Positions 18,080-56,270 are shown, counted from the first letter of the stretch. The stretch: 64,000 nt of DNA from Sulfuricurvum sp. (GCA_030693335.1 JAUYAU010000001.1:13796-77795); one strand, 5' to 3'. Notes: generated from the sequence alone by a model not told the origin. Translations and numbers: made by a program.

Positions 18080-19801
18080 TTATCTGTTCAGTAACAGTAA
18101 AATAATGCCCAACAATATAAAAGAGATACCTTTCCAAATAACGACTGGATGACGTTCGATTAATGGTGGTCTAGTCCTGTTTACAAAGGCACTGTTGGGG
18201 TGGCGAAGATCATAAATGAATTCTGACAATTCACCATAGCGCTCATACGGATCGGGTTGCAAAGCTTTTTTAAGCGCTTCATCTATCCACACCGGTATCT
18301 TGCTATCTTCAGACTCTAAAGAGGCATATTTTAATTTTTTTTGTGCAGCCTTTGTTGTGCACCGTGCTACTTGTACTCCATATGGAAACTCTCCAGATAA
18401 CATTTGGTAAACAATCACACCTAAAGAAAAAAGGTCGGATCGGGATGTGCCTATTTTTCCAAGGAAATATTCCGGTGCAGAGTAAAGAGCCGTTCCTAAA
18501 AGATTCTCTTGATCAAGATAGGTGTTCACATCAACAATTCCTTCAACACGTGTTGAGCCAAAATCGATTATTTTTACCGTCCCGGAATTGTCAATAATAA
18601 TATTATCCGGCCTGAGATCTTGATGTATCATCTCTTGGCGGTGAAAAGCGAGTAAGCCTCTGGCTATTTGTTCTGCGATTTTCCGTACCGTTTCTATGTT
18701 TGGTTTTGGGTTGTCTATCATCCATTGCTTTAGTGTCTGACCCTCAATAAATTCTGTTACAGTATAAAAATAATTGCGTTTACGCGTTTGAAGATAAGAT
18801 TTCGCCACGTGGGGACTGTTTATACGTATTGCTATCCACTCTTCCATCAAAAAGCGTTCAAGATAGGCTTTATCATCTCTTAAATCGATAGAAGGTGTTT
18901 TTAATACCACAGATGTGCCGGTTTCATCATCTCGAGCAAGGTAAACATGGCTTCGACTGCTGGAACTGAGTATACGTATAATGGTATATCCATCAAAAGA
19001 ACTTCTAGATTCAAGGATGGGAGGGAAGGGTTTATGCGTCAATTGTTTATGGATTTCATCGATATTCTTATGGGGCAGAGCGTCTATGCGTACAATTTGA
19101 ATAGTTAAGTTATCGGTACTGCCCTCATCGTAAGCTTTGTCTGCAATGGTTTTTGCCATGGATTCAAATAAATGATTTTTCTCTTGTAACGTTTCGATAA
19201 TAAAGTCAGTACTCACAAACTCGTAAACACCATCCGTCATGAATAGGAAGGTATCGTTTTTTTCTACCGAAAAGCTTTCGTAATCCGTTGCTACTTGAGT
19301 GTCCATGCCCAGAGCTCGGCTGAGGTAACTTTTGTCCCTTGAAATCCAAAGTCGATGGTCTTCAGTCAATTGTTCAAGTCGGTTGTCACGTAATCGATAG
19401 ATACGGGTATCACCTGCATGAAATATATGGGCTGTTGAGGAACGAATGATCATGCCGCTAAAGGTACAGACATAGCCTCTGTCTTTGTCATAATGATATT
19501 GGCCTTGCTTGCTTTGGCTGTATAGCCAAGAATTGGTAGCACTTAAGACACGCTCTGCTGATTTCTTGACAGACCAGGATTCCGGGGTCGAAAAGTAATC
19601 AATTAAAAAAGAGGTAACGGATACCTTGCTGGCAATTTGGCTGACATCACTGCTGCTGATGCCGTCTGCAAGGGCAATAGCAATTCCTTTATTGGTCAGC
19701 TGCGGCTCTTTGGGAATACAGATATCGTGAAAGTCTTGATTGATCTCTTTACGGCCTGAAGTGGAGTATTGGGCTATGGATACTTTTAATTGATTTCGCA
19801 T
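18080..19801 (-). CDS. Bifunctional PP2C-type phosphatase / Hanks-type Ser/Thr kinase with C-terminal TM helix
   Basis: PP2C motifs ALADG, HAGDTR, MTDG, TDN; kinase motifs VVLK, HQDLRPDN, DFG, APE; hydrophobic C-terminus. The start could be 19801 or 19837. Confidence 0.9.
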   Translation of the reverse strand: MRNQLKVSIAQYSTSGRKEINQDFHDICIPKEPQLTNKGIAIALADGISSSDVSQIASKVSVTSFLIDYFSTPESWSVKKSAERVLSATNSWLYSQSKQGQYHYDKDRGYVCTFSGMIIRSSTAHIFHAGDTRIYRLRDNRLEQLTEDHRLWISRDKSYLSRALGMDTQVATDYESFSVEKNDTFLFMTDGVYEFVSTDFIIETLQEKNHLFESMAKTIADKAYDEGSTDNLTIQIVRIDALPHKNIDEIHKQLTHKPFPPILESRSSFDGYTIIRILSSSSRSHVYLARDDETGTSVVLKTPSIDLRDDKAYLERFLMEEWIAIRINSPHVAKSYLQTRKRNYFYTVTEFIEGQTLKQWMIDNPKPNIETVRKIAEQIARGLLAFHRQEMIHQDLRPDNIIIDNSGTVKIIDFGSTRVEGIVDVNTYLDQENLLGTALYSAPEYFLGKIGTSRSDLFSLGVIVYQMLSGEFPYGVQVARCTTKAAQKKLKYASLESEDSKIPVWIDEALKKALQPDPYERYGELSEFIYDLRHPNSAFVNRTRPPLIERHPVVIWKGISFILLGIILLLLNR

Positions 19802-19827
19802 AGTGTTTTGGCAGCCTTGTAGAGATC

Positions 19828-19853
19828 GCCTCAACAATAGATGTTGAGGTTTT
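19828..19853. terminator. Hairpin between cynS and the kinase/phosphatase gene
   Basis: CCTCAACA-ATAGA-TGTTGAGG, 8-bp perfect stem; the T-run lies on the + strand side. Confidence 0.4.
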
Positions 19854-47031: not shown

Positions 47032-47310
47032 CTAAAGATCCATTTTTCCAATAGCACAGGAAACGAAACTCTTGGCATTGGTTGTTAGTGTCTGCAGGGT
47101 ATTGAGTTCATCGGTTGTCAGTGGATAGCCTAAACTTCTGAGTTTGAGTTTGAGTTTTTCCATTTGATCGTCTTGGATATCCAACGTGATCTTGCGCGGT
47201 TCACACTCAAGATCGACGTTTACGTCGCCAAAATCATCCGCCAGGCTTTTTTTAAGCGTATTGGCGCATCCTCCGCATTTGACATTCAGAACTTCAAACG
47301 TTTGTAGCAT
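47032..47310 (-). CDS. Heavy-metal-associated (HMA) domain protein
   Basis: NVKCGGCAN CxxC motif; SLGYP; C-terminal SCAIG. Confidence 0.85.
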   Translation of the reverse strand: MLQTFEVLNVKCGGCANTLKKSLADDFGDVNVDLECEPRKITLDIQDDQMEKLKLKLRSLGYPLTTDELNTLQTLTTNAKSFVSCAIGKMDL

Positions 47311-47325
47311 GATAAATCCTTTTTA

Positions 47326-47916
47326 TTATAACGATACCACATCGGTTGAGAGAAGGATGCGCATCGTCTCATAGGCATTTCCGACTTCGCCTACTTGCAA
47401 AGAAGCAGGGTCGATGCCAAGAGCTTCAAGGCACAGCCCGCAGCTGTAGATGGTGACACCGCGAGATGCAAGAACTTGTAATGATGCAATAATTTCACTG
47501 TTTTCTTGCTTTGTTGTAAGAAGTACCCCTTCGTTGACGAAGATGATGTATCGAGGAAGTGATTCAAACTCCAGTGTCGTTTTCAAAAAACCGTTCATCA
47601 GTTTTTTCCCAAGCTCCCCATTGCCGATACGATCCGTTTTGACAAAAATGGTGCGATTTAAAAGAATATTTTCGCTTTTATCAACAACGACATCGCATCC
47701 GAATCCCTTGACAATTTTCATCACAGTGACTCCGTCAGAGCGTTTGGCTTCGGTAGCGGTGCATCCTTGTGAAAGTGCAAATCTACGGCAGTTTTCGATC
47801 GAGGAGACGCTGTTTAGCTCTATATCGATGATGGCGTCTTCGCTCAGAGCCTCGAGTGCTTTTTTGAGTTCGAGTACGGGCTTGGGACAGTCTAAGTCTT
47901 TGCAGTCTAGGTTCAT
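47326..47916 (-). CDS. yedF: YedF-like sulfur/selenium transferase (TusA + DsrE domains)
   Basis: LDCKDLDCPKPV TusA CPxP motif; FVNEGV and SCGLCL DsrE motifs. Confidence 0.82.
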   Translation of the reverse strand: MNLDCKDLDCPKPVLELKKALEALSEDAIIDIELNSVSSIENCRRFALSQGCTATEAKRSDGVTVMKIVKGFGCDVVVDKSENILLNRTIFVKTDRIGNGELGKKLMNGFLKTTLEFESLPRYIIFVNEGVLLTTKQENSEIIASLQVLASRGVTIYSCGLCLEALGIDPASLQVGEVGNAYETMRILLSTDVVSL

Positions 47917-48845
47917 GAAATAGTTCCTTTTTTATATATCAGATTTTTGAGACTTCGTTCATCATCGCTTGTCGGGAAACTCTCTAAATTATCCAGCCTC
48001 TTAATATAGCTAAATTCAGGGGCGTTTTCATGAAAAAGGTTTTTGATAAATGCCGTATCCAGTTCGGGTGCATTGAGTGCGGCCAAAACGGTGCACTCTG
48101 GTGCCGCAAACTCGTGGAGTCTTCGGATGATCTTGGCATAGTCGCTTGTTGCCGCAAAGGAGCCTTTTTGAAAACTAGGGGGATCGATGATGATGAGGTC
48201 ATACGGTCCCGCTTTGCGGATACGGCTCCATGATTTGAGAATATTGTAGGGCATGAAGTGTACTTTTTTGGTATCAAGATTGTTTAGGCGGTGATTTTCT
48301 CGTCCGGTGGTGAGGACGTTTTTGTTCATATCGACGTTGACGACCGATGTTGCCCCTCCGTCGATCGCCGCAACAGAAAACGAGCAAGTATAGGAAAAAA
48401 GATTGAGGACGTTTTTGCCTTTTGCATTCTCGTGGATAAAGGAGCGTCCGATTTTCATATCGGGAAAAAATCCGATGTTTTGGGCATTGAGGAAGCTGAT
48501 ATGGTATTTAAGGCCGTCTTCGATGGCAAATATTTGCGCTGGCATTTGTCCTTCAATAATCGTTGATGGAGCATCTTTGAGATAGCGTTGCTGAACTATT
48601 AATGCTTCCCATTTTTTTTCAGCTGTATAGAAATCACGTAACATGGAGACAATAGCATCTTCCTCATTACACGATTCAAAGAAGACGGCAAAGAGAACCA
48701 TGTCTATACTGTCTACGGTGAGAAAATGGTATCCCCCATAGGTATTTCCGCGTCCATGAAATAATCGAGTGTATTCCTGCATTTTGTTTTGTGCATTTGT
48801 AATGAGTAGTTGTTGCAGCTGGCTTAAGTTCAAAACAGCTCCCAT
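47913..48845 (-). CDS. SAM-dependent rRNA methyltransferase (RlmI/RlmK-like)
   Basis: GFFPD, VLNLFSYTCSFS, LIIIDPPSF. Confidence 0.85.
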   Translation of the reverse strand: MGAVLNLSQLQQLLITNAQNKMQEYTRLFHGRGNTYGGYHFLTVDSIDMVLFAVFFESCNEEDAIVSMLRDFYTAEKKWEALIVQQRYLKDAPSTIIEGQMPAQIFAIEDGLKYHISFLNAQNIGFFPDMKIGRSFIHENAKGKNVLNLFSYTCSFSVAAIDGGATSVVNVDMNKNVLTTGRENHRLNNLDTKKVHFMPYNILKSWSRIRKAGPYDLIIIDPPSFQKGSFAATSDYAKIIRRLHEFAAPECTVLAALNAPELDTAFIKNLFHENAPEFSYIKRLDNLESFPTSDDERSLKNLIYKKGTIS

Positions 48846-49492
48846 GGATTATTCCATATTGTTAGTTGGTCTCTACACTCAGAGCTTATAAAACGCTCTC
48901 CCTCATCGGGTGTTGAAACGAAGCTGAACGTTTCACCCTTGAGAACAAAGCGCAGTGCATAGGCGTGCAGATAGCCGCGATCTTCTTTACGGGCTTCATC
49001 AGAGGCCGCATAGCGTTCATCTCCGGCACAGGGAGAGCCGAGGCTTTTGAGGGCGACACGGATTTGATGGGTTTTACCCGTATGGGGTTTGATGAGAAAA
49101 AAACGTTCATGGGTACGCAGGGCGCAGCTAATGAATTGTGTTATGGCGGGATTGTCCATGGTAGGCAGGAGTTTATAGTCTCCGCGTCGGGCGTTTCCCA
49201 TATCTGCTTTGACCCAGCCCATCTTTTTTTTCGGTTTGCGCATACTGATGGCGAGGTAGTATTTCTCCACTTCACGGTTTTCAAACATTTTGCCAAACAG
49301 TGCGGCAACTTCAGAAGTTTTGGCAAGGATGACTAAGCCAGAGGTCATTTTATCGAGGCGGTGGACGGGAAAGAGCGCAATGCCTGTTTGTTGACTCACT
49401 TGCACTACAAATCCTGCTGCTTCTTCTGAGTGAAAATTGACACCTGCGGGCTTGAGGGCGATAATGAATGAATCATTTTCATGGAAGATCAT
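48830..49492 (-). CDS. RluA-family pseudouridine synthase (TIGR01621-like)
   Basis: KPAGV, VHRLDKMTSG, TGKTHQIRV, GDERY, LHAY; likely start 49492. Confidence 0.9.
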   Translation of the reverse strand: MIFHENDSFIIALKPAGVNFHSEEAAGFVVQVSQQTGIALFPVHRLDKMTSGLVILAKTSEVAALFGKMFENREVEKYYLAISMRKPKKKMGWVKADMGNARRGDYKLLPTMDNPAITQFISCALRTHERFFLIKPHTGKTHQIRVALKSLGSPCAGDERYAASDEARKEDRGYLHAYALRFVLKGETFSFVSTPDEGERFISSECRDQLTIWNNPWELF

Positions 49493-49652
49493 GGAGTTTA
49501 TGATTAAGCCTTTTAAGTGAAGAGGTTTATGAGTCAAGTACAGCTTTAAAGGTTGGATAAGCTTTGGAAACTATTTTAAAAAAATTATACACTATCGAAA
49601 TATAAATGCTACAATCTAACAAAATAGATGCGCTAATAAGATTGAGGAAGAT

Positions 49653-50465
49653 ATGAATATTATCAAGCGAAATAATGTACATGTAATAGGTGATAAAGGT
49701 TCCGTAATCCTCTATGCTCATGGGTTTGGTTGCAGCCAGAGAATGTGGGATCGAATTACCCCTGCTTTTAGTTCTACTCACCGACAAGTTTTATTTGATT
49801 ATGTTGGCAGTGGAAAATCCGATTTGGCCTCGTTTGACAGTAAACGATATTCCAGCTTACAAGGCTATGCTCAGGATATCCTGGATGTATGTGATGCACT
49901 TGATTTACATAGCGGTGTCATATTTGTCGGCCATTCGGTCAGCTGCAGTGCAGGATTACTGGCTTCGATTGCACGTCATGAACTGTTTGATCGTATGGTT
50001 CTCATAGGGCCCTCTCCGTGTTTTTTGAATCATCCGCCTGAGTATTTGGGAGGTTTTGAGCGTGAAGACCTGGAGGGATTGCTCTCTCTAATGGATCAAA
50101 ACTACATAGGCTGGGCTAACTATTTGGCTCCTGTGGTATCGGGTGAAGGCGGCGGAGAAAAAGTATCGCGTGAATTGTCCGAGAGTTTTTGCTCTACGGA
50201 CCCGCAGGTAGCACGAGTATTTGCCAAAACCACTTTTTTCTCTGACAATCGTGCTGACTTGCCATTGGTTACTTGCCCTTCGTTAATTCTTCAACACAGC
50301 AGAGATACGCTGGCACCACTAGGAGTAGGCGATCATATGCATAAAACCTTGAAAAATAGTACCTATAAAGTAATTGATGTAGCTGGTCATTGTGGGCACA
50401 TGAGTCATCCAGAGTTGGTTATAGAAGCTATGAGAGAATATTTTGATACTGCTTCTTTGGGCTAA
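49653..50465 (+). CDS. RsbQ/KAI2-like alpha/beta hydrolase
   Basis: RNNVHVIG, HGFGCSQRMW, FDYVGSG, GHSV (Ser), SRD (Asp), GHCGHMSHP (His); collinear with B. subtilis RsbQ as recalled. Confidence 0.92.
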   Translation: MNIIKRNNVHVIGDKGSVILYAHGFGCSQRMWDRITPAFSSTHRQVLFDYVGSGKSDLASFDSKRYSSLQGYAQDILDVCDALDLHSGVIFVGHSVSCSAGLLASIARHELFDRMVLIGPSPCFLNHPPEYLGGFEREDLEGLLSLMDQNYIGWANYLAPVVSGEGGGEKVSRELSESFCSTDPQVARVFAKTTFFSDNRADLPLVTCPSLILQHSRDTLAPLGVGDHMHKTLKNSTYKVIDVAGHCGHMSHPELVIEAMREYFDTASLG

Positions 50466-50474
50466 CAAGGCAAT

Positions 50475-52664
50475 TTGAACTATATGAACAATTTGATTGA
50501 TCAACTGCCTTGTCCTGTATTGATTACTGATGCCATGGGTCATATATTTATGGCTAATACTAATTTATTGCAATTAGCGGGAGGGAGTGCTGAAGAATGG
50601 GATAAAAAGTCTCTAAATGATTTATTACCCCCTGCGAGCCGTATTTTTTTACAGACACACCTTTGGCCAATTTTATATCATGAAGCGCAAGTTCAAGAAA
50701 TCCACATGCAAATCTATGACAGCCAAAAACAATCTGTTCCCGTATTGGTCAACTGTCAGAGAAGTTTTTATAATGGCCAAGAAAGCTACTCTTGGGTATT
50801 TTTTGTCGCACATGAACGCAGTCGGTTTGAGGCTGAGCTACTGAAAGCCAAAGAAAATGCCCAAGCATCCGAACGCGCTAAATCACAATTTTTAGCTGCC
50901 ATGAGTCATGAGATACGAACTCCCATGAACGGCGTATTGGGAATGCTGGGACTACTGGATAAAACTCAACTTAACCCATCTCAAAAACACAAAGTGGCTG
51001 TTGCAACTTCCAGTGCTACCTCATTGCTGGGACTTATCAATGATATTCTCGATTTTTCCAAGATTGAAGCAGGGAAGATGGATTTGGAAATGCTCGAGTT
51101 TGATCTAAGAAATGAGTTGGAAGATTTCACACACTCCATTGCATTTAAAGTCCAAGAAAAAGGTTTAAAACTCATTCTAGACACCGATAAAATCAGTTAT
51201 TCAAACATTATCACCGATCCGGGACGTTTGCGTCAGATTCTCACCAACCTCGTAGGAAATGCAGTGAAGTTTACTCATGAGGGGAAAATCACCATTAAAA
51301 CTTCTCTTTACAAAGAGGATGAAAAGCGTGGACGTCTGCATATTGATGTTATTGATACAGGTATTGGGATACCGCATGAAAAGATAGAAACGCTGTTTGA
51401 AGCATTTACCCAAGCCGATGGGTCAACAACCCGTAAATACGGAGGAACGGGGCTAGGACTCTCGATCGTCAAGAAATTGTGTGCGCTTATGGGGGGCTTC
51501 GTTAGTGCTACGAGTATTCCAGGAGAGGGAAGTACCTTTAGTGTGGATTTAAAGGTTGGGCTTGGAAGTGACCAAGTTATTGTTCAAAGCACTGAAGAAG
51601 AATTCAAGGAAGATAGTATCTCTTGGCCATCAGATATCCGAATTCTTCTTGTTGAAGACAACACTACCAATCAGCTTGTAGCACAAGGAATGCTTAATAG
51701 TTTAGGGCTCTACGCAGATATCGCATCTAACGGCTTAGAAGCGCTAGAAGCCATCCAAATCTCCACTGACAGTCAACCATATTCTATCGTTTTGATGGAC
51801 TGCCAGATGCCTGAAATGGATGGATACGATGCAACACATGCTATACGTGAGGGAAAAGCAGGCGAAGAGAACAAACAGCTCCACATCATTGCCATGACTG
51901 CCAATGCCATGCAAGGGGATCGTGAGAAATGCACGCTTGCCGGAATGGACGATTACATGACCAAACCGATCAATCTCTCTGTCTTAAAATCAGCACTGAT
52001 AAAATGGATTTTAAAGGGAGAAAAACCTGTTCAATCAAACCATAAACAAGCTGTCATAAAGAAAGCAGCATCAGCCGATCTTTCTTTGTGGGATGAAGCA
52101 GATGCTTTACATCGTTTAGGAAACAATGGTGTTTTATTGAACAAGATTATAAAATCGTTTATGAATGATGGACCTAACGCTCTCTCAGCACTGGTAAAAT
52201 CTTTGAAAGAAAACAACAGCCAAGATGCGCAACTGCATACACATTCGCTCAAAGGTGCCGCAGGAAATGTAGGTGCACTTAAACTACAAGAATTTGCAAG
52301 ACAGCTGGAGGAAGCGGCAAAAGATGAAAATCTCTCCAAAGTAGAAACAGGATTTGCAAAGTGTGAAACCATACTCAATGAGACGCTAAAAATATTCGAA
52401 ATTCATTTGGCAAAAGAGGTTAAACCAACCGTTCGAAAAAAACGTCTCGACTCTGTACAAATGGCCATCAAGCTCCAAAACCTCAAAAAAGAGCTGAAGA
52501 ATGGAATGATGATCGATACTGAAGAAACTGGGATATTTGTGGAGTATACCAATGAAATATTTAGTGAGAAGATAAGTAAACTCAAAGAACATGTTGAGAA
52601 GCTTGAGACGAATAAAGGGATTACCCTTATCGAGACCATTATGAGTGAACTGGAATCTTTTTAG
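50475..52664 (+). CDS. Cytoplasmic hybrid histidine kinase: RsbP-type PAS, HisKA, HATPase, REC, HPt
   Basis: DQLPC...ERSRFEAELLKAKENAQ PAS-coil; SHEIRTPMNG; NAVKFT; GGTGLGL; LMDCQMPEMDG; HSLKGAAGN; no TM. The start may be the ATG at 50484. Confidence 0.93.
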   Translation: MNYMNNLIDQLPCPVLITDAMGHIFMANTNLLQLAGGSAEEWDKKSLNDLLPPASRIFLQTHLWPILYHEAQVQEIHMQIYDSQKQSVPVLVNCQRSFYNGQESYSWVFFVAHERSRFEAELLKAKENAQASERAKSQFLAAMSHEIRTPMNGVLGMLGLLDKTQLNPSQKHKVAVATSSATSLLGLINDILDFSKIEAGKMDLEMLEFDLRNELEDFTHSIAFKVQEKGLKLILDTDKISYSNIITDPGRLRQILTNLVGNAVKFTHEGKITIKTSLYKEDEKRGRLHIDVIDTGIGIPHEKIETLFEAFTQADGSTTRKYGGTGLGLSIVKKLCALMGGFVSATSIPGEGSTFSVDLKVGLGSDQVIVQSTEEEFKEDSISWPSDIRILLVEDNTTNQLVAQGMLNSLGLYADIASNGLEALEAIQISTDSQPYSIVLMDCQMPEMDGYDATHAIREGKAGEENKQLHIIAMTANAMQGDREKCTLAGMDDYMTKPINLSVLKSALIKWILKGEKPVQSNHKQAVIKKAASADLSLWDEADALHRLGNNGVLLNKIIKSFMNDGPNALSALVKSLKENNSQDAQLHTHSLKGAAGNVGALKLQEFARQLEEAAKDENLSKVETGFAKCETILNETLKIFEIHLAKEVKPTVRKKRLDSVQMAIKLQNLKKELKNGMMIDTEETGIFVEYTNEIFSEKISKLKEHVEKLETNKGITLIETIMSELESF

Positions 52665-52667
52665 TGG

Positions 52668-53384
52668 TTAAATCGGTAGTTCATCCAGTTGTATAATACG
52701 GTATTCACCGCTCTTCAAATCCCTGAGTGTTAAGTCCCCAATACGAGAACGGTGTAATGCTGTGACATGATTCCCCACTGCCGCGAACATACGGCGTACT
52801 TGGTGATAACGTCCCTCGGTGATCTCTAGTGTGACATGAGTCGCACCAATAATCTTTAGTTTTGCAGGGAGGCATGGGCTTTTTTCACCTTTGAGCATCA
52901 AAGTACCCGATGCAAAAATTTCCGCTTCATCTCCTCGTAATGGACGATCAAGGGTCACTTCATAAAGTTTAGGTACATGATATTTAGGGGAGGTGAGGCG
53001 ATGAAGCAGTTGCCCGTCATCGGTAAGCAGCAACAGTCCACTGGTATCTTTGTCCAAACGTCCGATGGTGGAGAGCTTGGGATCACGATTACGCCATCGT
53101 TGGGGAAGCAGATCATAAACGAGCTGCCCCTCTCCGTCATCATGCGAGCAGACTAGACCTGTAGGTTTGTGCATCAAGATGACCATCCCCTGTTGCGGAT
53201 CGAGAGGAACGCCCTCAAAGAGTACTTCGTGATGAAAGGCTTTAACATCACTTTTGGTGATTTGTTTTCCCTCGACCGTGACAACTCCTGAGGCGATGAG
53301 TTTTTTGGACTCGCTTCGACTTGCGTATCCTAGACTAGTGAGAAGCTGATCGAGTCGTTGTTTAGAGGGCTTCGAGTTTTTCAT
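52668..53384 (-). CDS. RsuA-family pseudouridine synthase
   Basis: S4 domain RLDQLL..LGYASR, IGRLDKDTSGLLL, EGRYHQVRRM; likely start 53384. Confidence 0.9.
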   Translation of the reverse strand: MKNSKPSKQRLDQLLTSLGYASRSESKKLIASGVVTVEGKQITKSDVKAFHHEVLFEGVPLDPQQGMVILMHKPTGLVCSHDDGEGQLVYDLLPQRWRNRDPKLSTIGRLDKDTSGLLLLTDDGQLLHRLTSPKYHVPKLYEVTLDRPLRGDEAEIFASGTLMLKGEKSPCLPAKLKIIGATHVTLEITEGRYHQVRRMFAAVGNHVTALHRSRIGDLTLRDLKSGEYRIIQLDELPI

Positions 53385-55194
53385 CGGTCTCTTTGGTGAT
53401 ACGTTCGAACTCATGACTGGCAACTTCGAGCCGCTCAAACAGCTCTTCAATCATTTTTTCATCCGCAGCGACATTCTTGGAAAGTTCCATGAGTTGACTG
53501 CTGTCCCCACTGTTGGAATGTACGATGAGCTGTTCGTGGGAAATTTTGAGCTTGTCTTCGAGCTGCATGATGGTGTTTTCACAGTAATCAATCTCTTTTT
53601 TAAGAGGATTTAGGAGTTTTGAACGCTCCTGAATCAATGCAGAGCGCACTTGTTTGTTCTCTTTTTTAGATCCTTGCTGGATTGGCTTTTGGGCTTTTGG
53701 TGCGTCACTGATGTCGTCTTCCCAGCCGATTTTTTCCAAAAATTCATCGTAGCTACCGTTAAAAAACTCCGCACCGCCTTCACGAAAGACGATCAGCTGA
53801 TCAGCCAGCTCACGCAACAGCATTTCAGAGTGAGTGACAATGACCGTAGAACCCTCAAAACGTTTCACCGCATCGCATAGCGAATCGATCGATTGCATGT
53901 CGAGGTGGTTGGTCGGTTCATCCAAAAAGAGGAGATTGGCAGGGGTGGCGATAATTTTACCCAACATGACACGGCTGCGCTCTCCCCCTGAGAGAATGCT
54001 GATCTTTTTCTCTCCATCATCACCGCTGAACATCATCGTTCCGCAGATACCGCGCACTTTTACATTGGGTAGGGTATTATCGGCGCTTTGGATTTCGTCG
54101 ATGATGGTACTGTTTGTATTGAGACGCTCAATATTGGTTTGACCAAAATGGGCAATTTTTGTGGAGGGGTGCATAATGATTTCACCCTGTGGGGTCAGCA
54201 CGCCTGCAAGGGTATTGAGAAGGGTTGATTTCCCTTTGCCGTTTTTCCCGATGATGGCAAGGCATTTGTCCTTTTCCAAATTAAAAGAGAGGTTTTGAAA
54301 GAGCAATTCATTAGGATTGTATCCAAAGGAGAGATCCTTGACGCTCATGATCACTTTTGCAGGAATCACAGAATAGGAAAATGAAAACGACAAATCACTG
54401 TCGGATTCCAGGTTTTCCATAATTCCCATTTTATCCAGCTCTTTTTGTTTGGATTGCGCCATTACCGCCGTGGAAGCACGGGCTTTGTTGCGAGCGATAA
54501 AATCGATGAGTTCCGCGCGTTTTTTGTCGTGATTGATTTTGCTTTTTTCGTACAGTTCGTCTTCTTGGGCGATGTGGGCATAGTATTTGACACTGTTGCC
54601 TTTGATGATCGAAACATTTTTACGGCGAAGACCCATTGTATGAGTACTTACAGAGTCCATGAAATCGCGATCATGGGTGATGAGGATGACTTCACCCTCA
54701 AAGGCACGTATAAAGGCTCCCAGCCATCGTAAAGAAACGATATCGAGGTAGTTGGTCGGTTCGTCCAGCAGCAGGAGATTGGGTTCGGTGACGAGGAGCT
54801 TGACGAGATTCATGCGGATCTGATACCCTCCTGAAAAACTCAAAGGGTCTTTGTCCAAATCGTCTTGGGTAAATCCTAAACCAAACAGGATTTTTTCGAC
54901 TTTATAGACATCGTGCACCGCATCACCCTCAAGTACAGAGGCACACTCATCGCGTACGGTTTTATGGGTGAAGTGCAAATGTTGGCGCAGTGTCCCTAAT
55001 CGATAGTTTTTAGGGAGGATGATCTCACCGCTGTCGTACGGTTCTTCGCCCAAGATGATTTTAAAAAGAGTCGATTTTCCGCTCCCGTTGCGCCCGACGA
55101 AACCGAGCTTATTGCCTGAAAAGAGCTTGAGATTGAGATCTTGAAAAAGAACTCTCCCCCCGTAGCTTTTGGTGAGGTTGTTGATTTGGATCAT
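53362..55194 (-). CDS. ABC-F family ATP-binding protein (Uup-like)
   Basis: Two NBDs (GRNGSGKS / FSGG / DEPTN; GKNGKGKS / LSGGE / DEPTN), C-terminal coiled coil, no TM. Confidence 0.92.
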   Translation of the reverse strand: MIQINNLTKSYGGRVLFQDLNLKLFSGNKLGFVGRNGSGKSTLFKIILGEEPYDSGEIILPKNYRLGTLRQHLHFTHKTVRDECASVLEGDAVHDVYKVEKILFGLGFTQDDLDKDPLSFSGGYQIRMNLVKLLVTEPNLLLLDEPTNYLDIVSLRWLGAFIRAFEGEVILITHDRDFMDSVSTHTMGLRRKNVSIIKGNSVKYYAHIAQEDELYEKSKINHDKKRAELIDFIARNKARASTAVMAQSKQKELDKMGIMENLESDSDLSFSFSYSVIPAKVIMSVKDLSFGYNPNELLFQNLSFNLEKDKCLAIIGKNGKGKSTLLNTLAGVLTPQGEIIMHPSTKIAHFGQTNIERLNTNSTIIDEIQSADNTLPNVKVRGICGTMMFSGDDGEKKISILSGGERSRVMLGKIIATPANLLFLDEPTNHLDMQSIDSLCDAVKRFEGSTVIVTHSEMLLRELADQLIVFREGGAEFFNGSYDEFLEKIGWEDDISDAPKAQKPIQQGSKKENKQVRSALIQERSKLLNPLKKEIDYCENTIMQLEDKLKISHEQLIVHSNSGDSSQLMELSKNVAADEKMIEELFERLEVASHEFERITKETDEKLEAL

Positions 55195-56270
55195 TAGTCT
55201 TCTATTTTATGAGGAAGTTTACCGGGCATTGCCTCTTTAGTGGAGAGCATATTCTCAATTTGCAGTTTTACTTTGTCATAACGAAACTGCTCTTTGAATC
55301 CCTGAATTCTACCACCTGCTGCATTGGGGTGTCCGCCGCCGCCAACCCATTCGCCCGACATCATCGCAACATCCACACGGTTATGTCCACGCAGACTCAT
55401 CGTACCGCGAGTTCCCACATCGAGAAAGAAATCAAATTCGCCATAGGTAGTCAAAAAGCCGTTTCCGATGATCGAGGTATTGCCCAAGCCGTAGCTCAAA
55501 AATCCGCGCCATCCTTTGTAATAGATGGTCATGGTTGAGCGTTTCGTTCCCAGCAGTCCGACAATATGTTTGGTAGAAAGATTATCCAGCGTATTGTCCA
55601 CACCGTCTTTGAAGAAATCTTTTTTCATTTTGTGCAGCGCTTCGTCCAATGCGATGTTGGCATTAGGCTCAAAGCGCACAAGTGCAGCTTGTTCGAGCAT
55701 CGCGAGTTTATAGGTACGATCATCCGAGGAAAACATAACACGGTTGATCTCTTTGGCATCGCTGATGAGGCGCATACATACTTTGCCGTATTCAAAATCT
55801 TCTACTTCGTCTTGGTGCCACAAATCCACTGCATTGACCACTTTGACAAAAGCCTCGAGCCATCCGCCCCCTTGGAGGCCGTAATTTTCAAGCGCATATT
55901 CATAGACGATCTTGGTTGCACAACGTTCGGTATCTAAAAAATACCATGCATATTGAGCCGCAGTATCTTTCCCGCTTCCGTGGTGATCGAGTAAATTAAT
56001 AGTGATTTTCCAGCCCGTATCGTTGAGACGATTGACTTCATTGTTTAACCATTTTGCTTCTTCAGGATAAAGGTTGAGGTCTGTGATCAAAATCGTCGCT
56101 TCTTGCTTTTCTTTTTTGAGAATCTCGACAATTTCAGTAAGTCTTTCCATCACTTCTGCGCCGTAGTTGGCATTGTAGCTGATCATGTTGTGGGTCGTTT
56201 GAGCCATAACGAGCTGACAGCTGTAGCCGTCTAGATCGATGTGGGAAAGATGGTAAATGGTTTTGTTCAT
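55194..56270 (-). CDS. DHH family phosphoesterase
   Basis: SHIDLDG, ITDL, LDHH and GGGGHPNAAG motifs. Confidence 0.88.
   Translation of the reverse strand: MNKTIYHLSHIDLDGYSCQLVMAQTTHNMISYNANYGAEVMERLTEIVEILKKEKQEATILITDLNLYPEEAKWLNNEVNRLNDTGWKITINLLDHHGSGKDTAAQYAWYFLDTERCATKIVYEYALENYGLQGGGWLEAFVKVVNAVDLWHQDEVEDFEYGKVCMRLISDAKEINRVMFSSDDRTYKLAMLEQAALVRFEPNANIALDEALHKMKKDFFKDGVDNTLDNLSTKHIVGLLGTKRSTMTIYYKGWRGFLSYGLGNTSIIGNGFLTTYGEFDFFLDVGTRGTMSLRGHNRVDVAMMSGEWVGGGGHPNAAGGRIQGFKEQFRYDKVKLQIENMLSTKEAMPGKLPHKIED

Follow-up and report, generated by a model that had tools for sequence, protein, structure and literature searches.

What does a bacterial relative of plant hormone receptors do beside a histidine kinase in a chemolithoautotrophic, sulfur-oxidising bacterium? 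The question is raised by a 64,000-nucleotide stretch of DNA from Sulfuricurvum sp. (Campylobacterota; GCA_030693335.1 JAUYAU010000001.1:13796-77795; hereafter the window), in which a gene for an RsbQ-type hydrolase and a gene for a soluble hybrid histidine kinase with an N-terminal PAS domain adjoin between positions 49653 and 52664. The RsbQ family matters because RsbQ is the relative, in bacteria, of the KAI2/D14 hormone receptors of plants, and the search for its native ligand goes on. We put at about 80% the probability that the two genes form a cytoplasmic sensor of the RsbQ-PAS bipartite class whose output is a phosphorelay through the hybrid histidine kinase. The RsbQ-PAS module itself is known; what is new is its chemolithoautotrophic Sulfuricurvum host and the chimeric make-up of the kinase gene. 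All coordinates are those of the whole window, and kinase residues are counted from the ATG at 50484 unless stated.

The bipartite sensing module was defined by Nadezhdin, Brody and Price (PLoS One 2011, PMC3183031), who described 45 adjacent pairs of RsbQ and an RsbP-type PAS domain, the PAS standing at the N terminus in every case and mostly joined to its output through a coiled coil. These outputs are phosphatases, kinases or hybrid kinases, and diguanylate cyclases, with kinase outputs in Gram-negatives (PMC3183031). An earlier note on the window, made from its sequence, had proposed the pair as a strong candidate for an undescribed signalling system; the module had in fact already been described with histidine kinase and hybrid-kinase outputs (PMC3183031).

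An RsbQ-type hydrolase and an RsbP-class PAS domain

The sensor half of the pair comprises the following features, all of which lie on the plus strand.

49653..50465, + strand, RsbQ-type alpha/beta hydrolase, 270 amino acids (open reading frame (ORF) list, Pfam Abhydrolase_6/1, PDB 1WOM match)
49935-49937, + strand, catalytic Ser95 of the hydrolase (alignment to RsbQ)
50304-50306, + strand, catalytic Asp218 of the hydrolase (alignment to RsbQ)
50388-50390, + strand, catalytic His246 of the hydrolase (alignment to RsbQ)
50484..52664, + strand, soluble hybrid histidine kinase, 726 amino acids from the ATG (ORF list, Pfam, database gene calls, RsbP alignment)
50484..50810, + strand, RsbP-class PAS domain, kinase residues 1-109 (BLASTP to RsbP, family hidden Markov model (HMM), AlphaFold2 (AF2))

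Searched against PDB sequences, the hydrolase matched Bacillus subtilis RsbQ best (1WOM, E 3e-93), then an Oleispira homologue (3QVM, E 1.6e-80), and then about 50 KAI2, D14 and DAD2 structures at E values of about 1e-48 to 1e-55; hydrolases from outside this clade begin only at ~1e-12, with the next at 4e-12. Identity to the Bacillus protein is 55% over 262 amino acids with a single one-residue gap, and the triad S95/D218/H246 aligns with S96/D219/H247 of RsbQ, which bears out the earlier description of a hydrolase that keeps its triad and is collinear with RsbQ. By these alignments the protein is an RsbQ orthologue-grade serine hydrolase of the KAI2/D14/RsbQ clade with an intact triad, and the ratio of nonsynonymous to synonymous substitution rates (dN/dS) between its gene and those of its relatives is 0.06-0.08. 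Plant KAI2 and D14 share with it the hydrolase family, the Ser-Asp-His triad and the logic of an enzyme that serves as a receptor; they differ in acting via the F-box protein MAX2 and the degradation of SMXL proteins, whereas the partner in the window is a kinase PAS domain.

Genuine RsbP was obtained indirectly, by following the RsbQ letters of the 1WOM alignment to an RsbQ cluster of the B. subtilis group and from there to its contig, where a 403-amino-acid PAS-SpoIIE gene (RsbP) lies directly downstream of rsbQ. BLASTP of the kinase against this protein gave one gap-free alignment of 135 residues at 27% identity (E 2e-15), in which the ATG at 50484 aligns with Met1 of RsbP and the residue numbering of the two proteins coincides. 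The RsbP string given in the note, KRNEYENELLIARNEAQ, is exact in the fetched Bacillus protein and aligns with ERSRFEAELLKAKENAQ of the kinase. The close resemblance to the PAS domain and coil of RsbP claimed there is upheld. The kinase ORF as a whole (50475-52664) could begin at an in-frame TTG at 50475, adding 3 residues for a total of 729; we favour the ATG because database gene calls give 726 amino acids and because the two proteins align from Met1 to Met1. Gene order and the short intergenic gap also match the rsbQ-rsbP energy-stress branch of sigma-B activation in B. subtilis: the hydrolase stop codon occupies 50463-50465, the kinase ATG lies 18 nt further downstream, and an AAGG stands between them at 50467-50470. 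Among public records the closest is a metagenome-assembled genome (MAG) of Sulfuricurvum sp., whose hydrolase is ~100% identical to that of the window and whose PAS region is 96% identical.

All ten of the class residues of Nadezhdin et al. 2011 are present in the kinase PAS (C10, L13, L48, R53, F55, L56, H59, P62, E72 and P86), for a class consensus that is basic at position 53, aromatic at 55, hydrophobic at 56 and H or Y at 59 (PMC3183031). Across 74 aligned sequences P62 and E72 do not vary, and conservation is at least 90% at C10, F55, L56 and P86. No DIT motif was found at the C-terminal end of the PAS domain, which ends ...WVFFVAHERSRFEAELL. We built a family HMM from 68 PAS domains encoded beside proteobacterial RsbQ homologues, leaving out the window gene and its two closest relatives, and ran it over every six-frame ORF of the window genome together with two Bacillus RsbP proteins. 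The kinase PAS scored 190.8 bits; the scores of the RsbP proteins were 102 bits (E 3e-30) and 88 bits (E 5e-26), and no other PAS in the window genome exceeded 18.7 bits. As judged from these scores and residues, the N-terminal domain of the kinase belongs to the RsbP-PAS class; grouping with RsbP was one of the points on which the earlier proposal could have failed, and it held, the PAS grouping with no other PAS.

The PAS region had no sequence match at E <=1 among all PDB chains, where there is no RsbP-PAS structure for comparison, and a word-based homologue search retrieved proteobacterial GGDEF and kinase proteins only, with no PPM phosphatase. The AF2 model of residues 1-145 (mean pLDDT, the predicted score in the local distance difference test, 92) is a canonical five-stranded PAS with a long F-alpha helix at 50-67, for which Foldseek, queried with the modelled PAS and linker, returned YF1, FixL and YtvA as best matches at no more than 19% identity.

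A helical linker into an unorthodox transmitter

The PAS domain gives way to a linker and to the following transmitter domains, so that the output of the window protein is HisKA-HATPase-REC-HPt, whereas that of RsbP is a PPM phosphatase.

50811..50876, + strand, helical (coiled-coil-type) linker, residues 110-131, continuing into the HisKA helix (AF2, conservation)
50877..51074, + strand, HisKA (DHp) domain, residues 132-197 (Pfam PF00512, E 5e-20)
50907-50909, + strand, phospho-acceptor His142 within SHEIRTP (H-box)
51216..51557, + strand, HATPase_c domain, residues 245-358 (Pfam PF02518, E 8e-31)
51642..51998, + strand, receiver (REC) domain, residues 387-505 (Pfam PF00072, E 1e-20)
51798-51800, + strand, phospho-acceptor Asp439 within LMDCQMP (located in the sequence)
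52146..52364, + strand, HPt domain, residues 555-627 (Pfam PF01627, E 6e-11)
52242-52244, + strand, HPt His587 within HSLKGAAGNVGA (located in the sequence)
52365..52661, + strand, C-terminal tail of 99 residues (no Pfam match; 64% identical to the tail of a CHASE paralogue)

In the 729-residue numbering, the Pfam spans are PAS 4-104, HisKA 135-200, HATPase_c 248-361, Response_reg 390-508 and Hpt 558-630. The H-box His, the HATPase, the receiver Asp and the HPt His are all present in the order of an unorthodox transmitter of the BarA, ArcB and TorS kind, with phospho-acceptors and catalytic residues intact. The ORF list and Pfam thus agree with the two reading frames and the domain order given in the note, including the continuation of the PAS into a phosphorelay kinase and not into PP2C. 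No transmembrane segment was found in either protein; the highest 19-residue Kyte-Doolittle mean of the kinase is 1.49 and falls inside the ATPase domain. We rejected BarA and TorS as candidate orthologues, their NCBIfam matches being far below the equivalog cut-offs.

The linker contains the invariant residues R112 and E116 and an ELLKA motif. AF2 predicts a single continuous helix from residue 110 to residue 144 (pLDDT 73-93) that runs from the PAS into HisKA, and this predicted helix would exceed the at least 21 residues of helical linker that are characteristic of the class. In this the protein would resemble the PAS-coiled-coil-DHp kinases YF1 and FixL (PDB 4GCZ and 8JS5), its best structural matches, in which the same helix is continuous; unlike the PAS domains of those kinases, which hold FMN or haem and carry the DIT motif, the window PAS lacks DIT and would be gated by its partner, the hydrolase. 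The pair likewise resembles the kinase-output class of 2011 in having an RsbQ homologue directly upstream, the class residues, no DIT, a helical linker and a Gram-negative host. It departs from that class in having an HPt after the receiver (the 2011 paper mentions a C-terminal receiver but no HPt), in its chemolithoautotrophic Campylobacterota host, and in an output that can be traced to a resident paralogue.

A natural chimera with a resident CHASE kinase

DNA comparisons place a boundary inside the linker helix.

50844..50848, + strand, chimera junction, kinase codons 121-122 (blastn block ends, protein alignment)

On the sensor side, a hydrolase-PAS-GGDEF locus of Sulfurimonas sp. CS5 (L004) aligns with the window by blastn at 81% from 49653 to 50848, a block that takes in the hydrolase, the PAS and the linker helix up to its middle, and then stops. 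The proteins show the same pattern, being alike through ...ERSRFEAELLKA(K/R)..AQ and unrelated after it, where a kinase stands against a GGDEF domain. On the output side, residues 122-726 are 72% identical in protein sequence to a 967-amino-acid gene of the same genome (G000 C14:172519-175422), and the DNA is 76% identical over 50844-52563 (blastn). By Pfam this paralogue is TM-CHASE-TM-HisKA-HATPase-REC-HPt (TM, transmembrane segment), followed by the same unannotated tail of 99 residues; identity by segment is 88% for HisKA, 75% for HATPase, 77% for REC, 67% for HPt and 64% for the tail. Since 30 other genomes of the genus offer the kinase part best matches of only 53-60%, the transmitter is a local duplicate. 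The two kinases are thus alike from the coil through to the tail and differ in their sensors, the paralogue having a membrane-anchored extracytoplasmic CHASE domain and the window kinase a cytoplasmic RsbQ-PAS sensor.

These homology blocks identify the kinase gene as a natural chimera, in which a sensor of the RsbQ-PAS-GGDEF lineage is joined at codon 122 to a diverged CHASE-kinase transmitter. By the same comparisons, a hydrolase-PAS-GGDEF lineage that has spread horizontally, with its nearest member in Sulfurimonas sp. CS5, supplied the hydrolase, the PAS and the coil as far as its midpoint. The mapped junction is one result that goes beyond the literature. YF1 is itself a chimera made by a sensor swap at the PAS-DHp helix, and the window gene is its natural counterpart at codons 121-122. 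A second, independent swap was found in Cellvibrionaceae at the same junction position: a PAS-PAS-GGDEF locus (L012) and a kinase-REC locus (L015) have hydrolases 83% identical and first 139 partner residues 73% identical, and homology ends just past an ELL(V/I)ARKR coil. The genes that follow the CHASE paralogue look, by eye, like those for a selenouridine synthase and for SelD.

Distribution of the module and its outputs

The earlier note had called the unit portable and proposed a survey of its outputs. Our survey covered 80 genome loci whose hydrolase is 59-100% identical to that of the window, and in 73 of them a homologue of the window PAS begins immediately downstream, counting one 41-amino-acid remnant and several genes cut by contig ends. 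The PAS gene lies upstream of the hydrolase in one further locus, and in another the contig ends at the PAS start. The hydrolase and this PAS class thus adjoin in 74 of the 80 loci, across Campylobacterota, Gamma- and Betaproteobacteria, and the pairing also occurs in Bacillus. The remaining five loci, all from Hydrogenophaga, have the hydrolase without a PAS partner; these orphans (L044, L045, L046, L049 and L051) are 67-69% identical to the window hydrolase and have no RsbP-class PAS nearby.

A Pfam scan of 72 downstream PAS proteins found GGDEF in 56, HisKA/HATPase in 12, Response_reg in 10, Hpt in eight and EAL in three; two SpoIIE matches come from the two RsbP controls that were added. 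The hydrolase-PAS unit is portable as claimed, its PAS being fused to outputs of several kinds. A database search with the PAS region additionally returned many PAS-HK-REC-HPt proteins (HK, histidine kinase) of 940-1050 amino acids from Rhodoferax and its relatives, annotated only as hybrid sensor kinases. Kinase outputs prove polyphyletic when the PAS domains are placed on a maximum-likelihood tree, with at least three origins of HK-REC-HPt forced by well-supported branches, and the four Campylobacterota kinases are nested inside a GGDEF clade (Sulfurimonas sp. CS5, Thiomicrospira cyclica) with support of 100/99. Hosts of the close clade include Sulfuricurvum, Sulfurimonas, Thiomicrospira, Nitrotoga, Gallionellaceae, Thiobacillus and Methylococcales, chemolithoautotrophs and methanotrophs with no plant association.

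Linker length is fixed in one output type. In all 12 of the direct PAS-GGDEF proteins (L004, L008, L016, L018, L021, L034, L050, L059, L061, L062, L073 and L075), exactly 52 residues separate the invariant E116 from the DxLTGLxNR start of the cyclase, at 40-70% sequence divergence. The corresponding distance in the window kinase, from E116 to the phospho-acceptor His142, is 26 residues, and the other kinase-type partners sampled have 170-305 intervening residues with extra PAS domains.

Mobility, selection and function of the pair

The hydrolase is present in only four of 151 genomes of the family, and in two of the same-genus genomes sampled. What the Campylobacterales MAG L003 has in common with the window is exactly 49575-52661, which it carries at 82% nucleotide identity in wholly different surroundings. 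In the same-genus genome G035, synteny with the window stops at 49447 and resumes at 52699, and the slot between both flanking pseudouridine synthase genes (L090 3356-5524) holds a 722-amino-acid heavy-metal P-type ATPase instead of the pair. Since the slot has other contents within the genus and the same unit stands elsewhere in other surroundings, the two genes are cargo in a variable slot.

Such a slot could have brought the two genes together by an accident of insertion, the hydrolase being a metabolic esterase or lactonase and the kinase PAS sensing something else, and the solitary hydrolases of Hydrogenophaga fit that picture. It is hardly credible and already contradicted: the two adjoin in 74 of 80 loci and also in Bacillus, the DNA homology blocks carry hydrolase and PAS jointly while the output changes, and the family HMM finds the PAS class nowhere else in the window genome.

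Could the chimera instead be a recent, non-functional product of recombination, a reading frame without a signalling role? Its patchy distribution (the four of 151 genomes), the absence of a linked regulator and a truncated remnant of the module in a Sulfurimonas MAG would agree with this. The same chimeric architecture is, however, kept in four Campylobacterota genomes, at synonymous divergence (dS) of 0.5-0.77 and dN/dS of 0.06-0.17 for hydrolase, PAS and kinase, and the catalytic and phospho-acceptor residues are all intact, which makes a non-functional gene very improbable. Over all comparisons dN/dS is 0.06-0.18 at dS of 0.5-1.1, indicating purifying selection on all parts; because of this selection and the intact residues, we regard the chimera as old and constrained enough to be functional.

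In the Sulfurimonas sp. MAG SI060_bin9 (L005 5001-5944), the hydrolase is 87% identical to that of the window and the PAS gene is reduced to a remnant of 41 residues followed by unrelated genes on the opposite strand. It has the look of a module copy in decay, with the hydrolase retained.

How the hydrolase may be coupled to the kinase

In B. subtilis, the RsbP PAS binds RsbQ on its own; with F55A, a substitution on the F-alpha helix, binding and signalling are both lost, and the catalytic triad of RsbQ is needed as well (PMC3183031). By analogy with this system, the window hydrolase would bind, and probably hydrolyse, a small butenolide-like or lactone or ester ligand, and would touch the PAS on the outward side of its F-alpha helix (F55, H59) in a manner dependent on the ligand or on catalysis. 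The contact may then alter the PAS dimer and the register of the coiled coil and so set autophosphorylation at His142; phosphate would move from there to Asp439 and then His587, and finally to a response regulator encoded elsewhere.

The same module could be coupled in another way, with the hydrolase making or destroying a diffusible ligand for the PAS pocket and forming no stable contact with the PAS. This is one of the two models kept by Nadezhdin et al. (PMC3183031), and it accommodates both the triad, which is required in B. subtilis and intact in the window hydrolase, and the many PAS domains that bind small ligands, the closest structural matches (FixL, LOV) being cofactor-binding. We consider it unlikely nonetheless, since the PAS alone binds RsbQ and the outer-face F55A substitution abolishes binding as well as signalling (PMC3183031), F55 is nearly invariant in the 74 aligned sequences, as fits a conserved protein interface, and adjacency in 73 of 80 loci exceeds what a diffusible product would need.

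As to the ligand, the butenolides GR24 and dGR24 are hydrolysed by RsbQ of B. subtilis, which becomes covalently modified on its catalytic His (bioRxiv 10.1101/2023.12.05.570042), and a proteobacterial RsbQ from Stenotrophomonas also hydrolyses strigolactones (bioRxiv 10.1101/2025.03.14.642314). The unidentified small molecule of which the earlier note spoke is thus a partly dated description, since butenolide hydrolysis and the His modification are on record.

Several points weigh against the bipartite sensor as we describe it. Its mechanism is carried over from B. subtilis across a PAS identity of 27%, and in that organism GR24 and dGR24 inhibit signalling and do not activate it (bioRxiv 10.1101/2023.12.05.570042). 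The Hydrogenophaga orphans indicate that the hydrolase can exist outside the module. There is no linked response regulator, and the genome has 76 receiver domains; a regulator shared with the CHASE paralogue, discussed below, would have the 67% HPt identity as its only ground.

Candidate targets of the phosphorelay

The sigma-B pathway served by RsbQ and RsbP in Bacillus is closed to the window pair. No RsbW-type kinase was found in the window genome, where HATPase_c_2 had no match above the cut-off, and no free-standing STAS protein was found there, STAS occurring only inside ORFs of 501 and 740 amino acids. Because the genome has no RsbW-type kinase and STAS only in large proteins, a sigma-B partner switch is excluded as the target, in agreement with the note, by which Campylobacterota are not known to have sigma-B. 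A sigma-B-like route via SpoIIE-type PPM genes, of which two were found, was also rejected: the one in the window is a fusion of PP2C and a kinase, and there are no RsbW- or RsbV-type partners. This fusion, a 585-amino-acid ORF on the minus strand (18080-19837), joins an N-terminal PP2C/SpoIIE-type phosphatase (Pfam PP2C_2 at 1e-12) to a C-terminal Hanks-type Ser/Thr kinase (Pkinase at 8.5e-37), placing opposing activities in one protein.

A genome scan located no receiver domain within ~27 kb on either side of the pair, which together with the hydropathy maximum confirms that neither transmembrane segments nor a cognate response regulator are to be found there, as had been noted. A response regulator was likewise sought beside the module, the CHASE paralogue and eight other RsbQ-PAS kinase loci, and of these only the Azoarcus locus (L030) has adjoining receiver genes. 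Chemotaxis, c-di-GMP and flagellar regulators, which had been put forward as targets, found no support in the sequence.

Because the HPt domains of the window kinase and the CHASE paralogue are 67% identical and have the same His-helix, it is probable that both kinases phosphorylate a common regulator or set of regulators. More tentatively, and with real doubt, one could go further: the RsbQ-PAS and CHASE sensors would sit on duplicate transmitters and feed one shared regulator, as a two-input phosphorelay, and RsbQ would have as its native ligand some universal metabolite of endogenous origin instead of a plant butenolide, a reading suggested for the ligand because the hosts of the clade include chemolithoautotrophs and methanotrophs without plant association.

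The window genome, at 2.17 Mb, has 76 receiver and 15 HPt domains, a very high phosphorelay density for its size, and many of its hybrid kinases are clustered on contig C14.

Genes around the pair

The pair is flanked by two genes that lie outside the system and are both opposite to it in strand.

48830..49537, - strand, RluA-type pseudouridine synthase, left flank (Pfam PF00849)
52668..53450, - strand, S4-domain pseudouridine synthase, right flank (Pfam PF00849 and S4)

Promoter and terminator scans gave nothing better than shuffled sequence. Further to the left, a TusA-DsrE fusion protein of 196 amino acids (Pfam; 47326-47916, minus strand) fits the background of a sulfur oxidiser and is unrelated to the pair; a small ORF beside it (47032-47310, minus strand) has a CGGC motif and, by eye, the look of a heavy-metal-binding domain. 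To the right, a 358-amino-acid ORF (55194-56270, minus strand) has no Pfam match at E 0.001; its neighbours are an ABC-F ATPase gene on one side and, on the other, a gene for a large membrane protein that by eye resembles flhA.

Implications for the RsbQ family

All 45 host bacteria of the 2011 survey were organo-heterotrophs (PMC3183031). The presence of the module in chemolithoautotrophs and methanotrophs contradicts that statement and favours a ligand that is endogenous or ubiquitous, as against a signal from plants. The chimera is a natural sensor swap resolved to the base, with two independent cases at the same place, and together with the fixed 52-residue linker of the GGDEF proteins it is useful for understanding as well as engineering the coupling of PAS domains to outputs. 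A soluble PAS-coil-DHp kinase of 726 amino acids also offers a simple in-vitro autophosphorylation read-out for ligand screens, easier than the Bacillus phosphatase pathway. If the native ligand is a universal endogenous metabolite, this would narrow the search for the long-sought ligand of RsbQ and KAI2.

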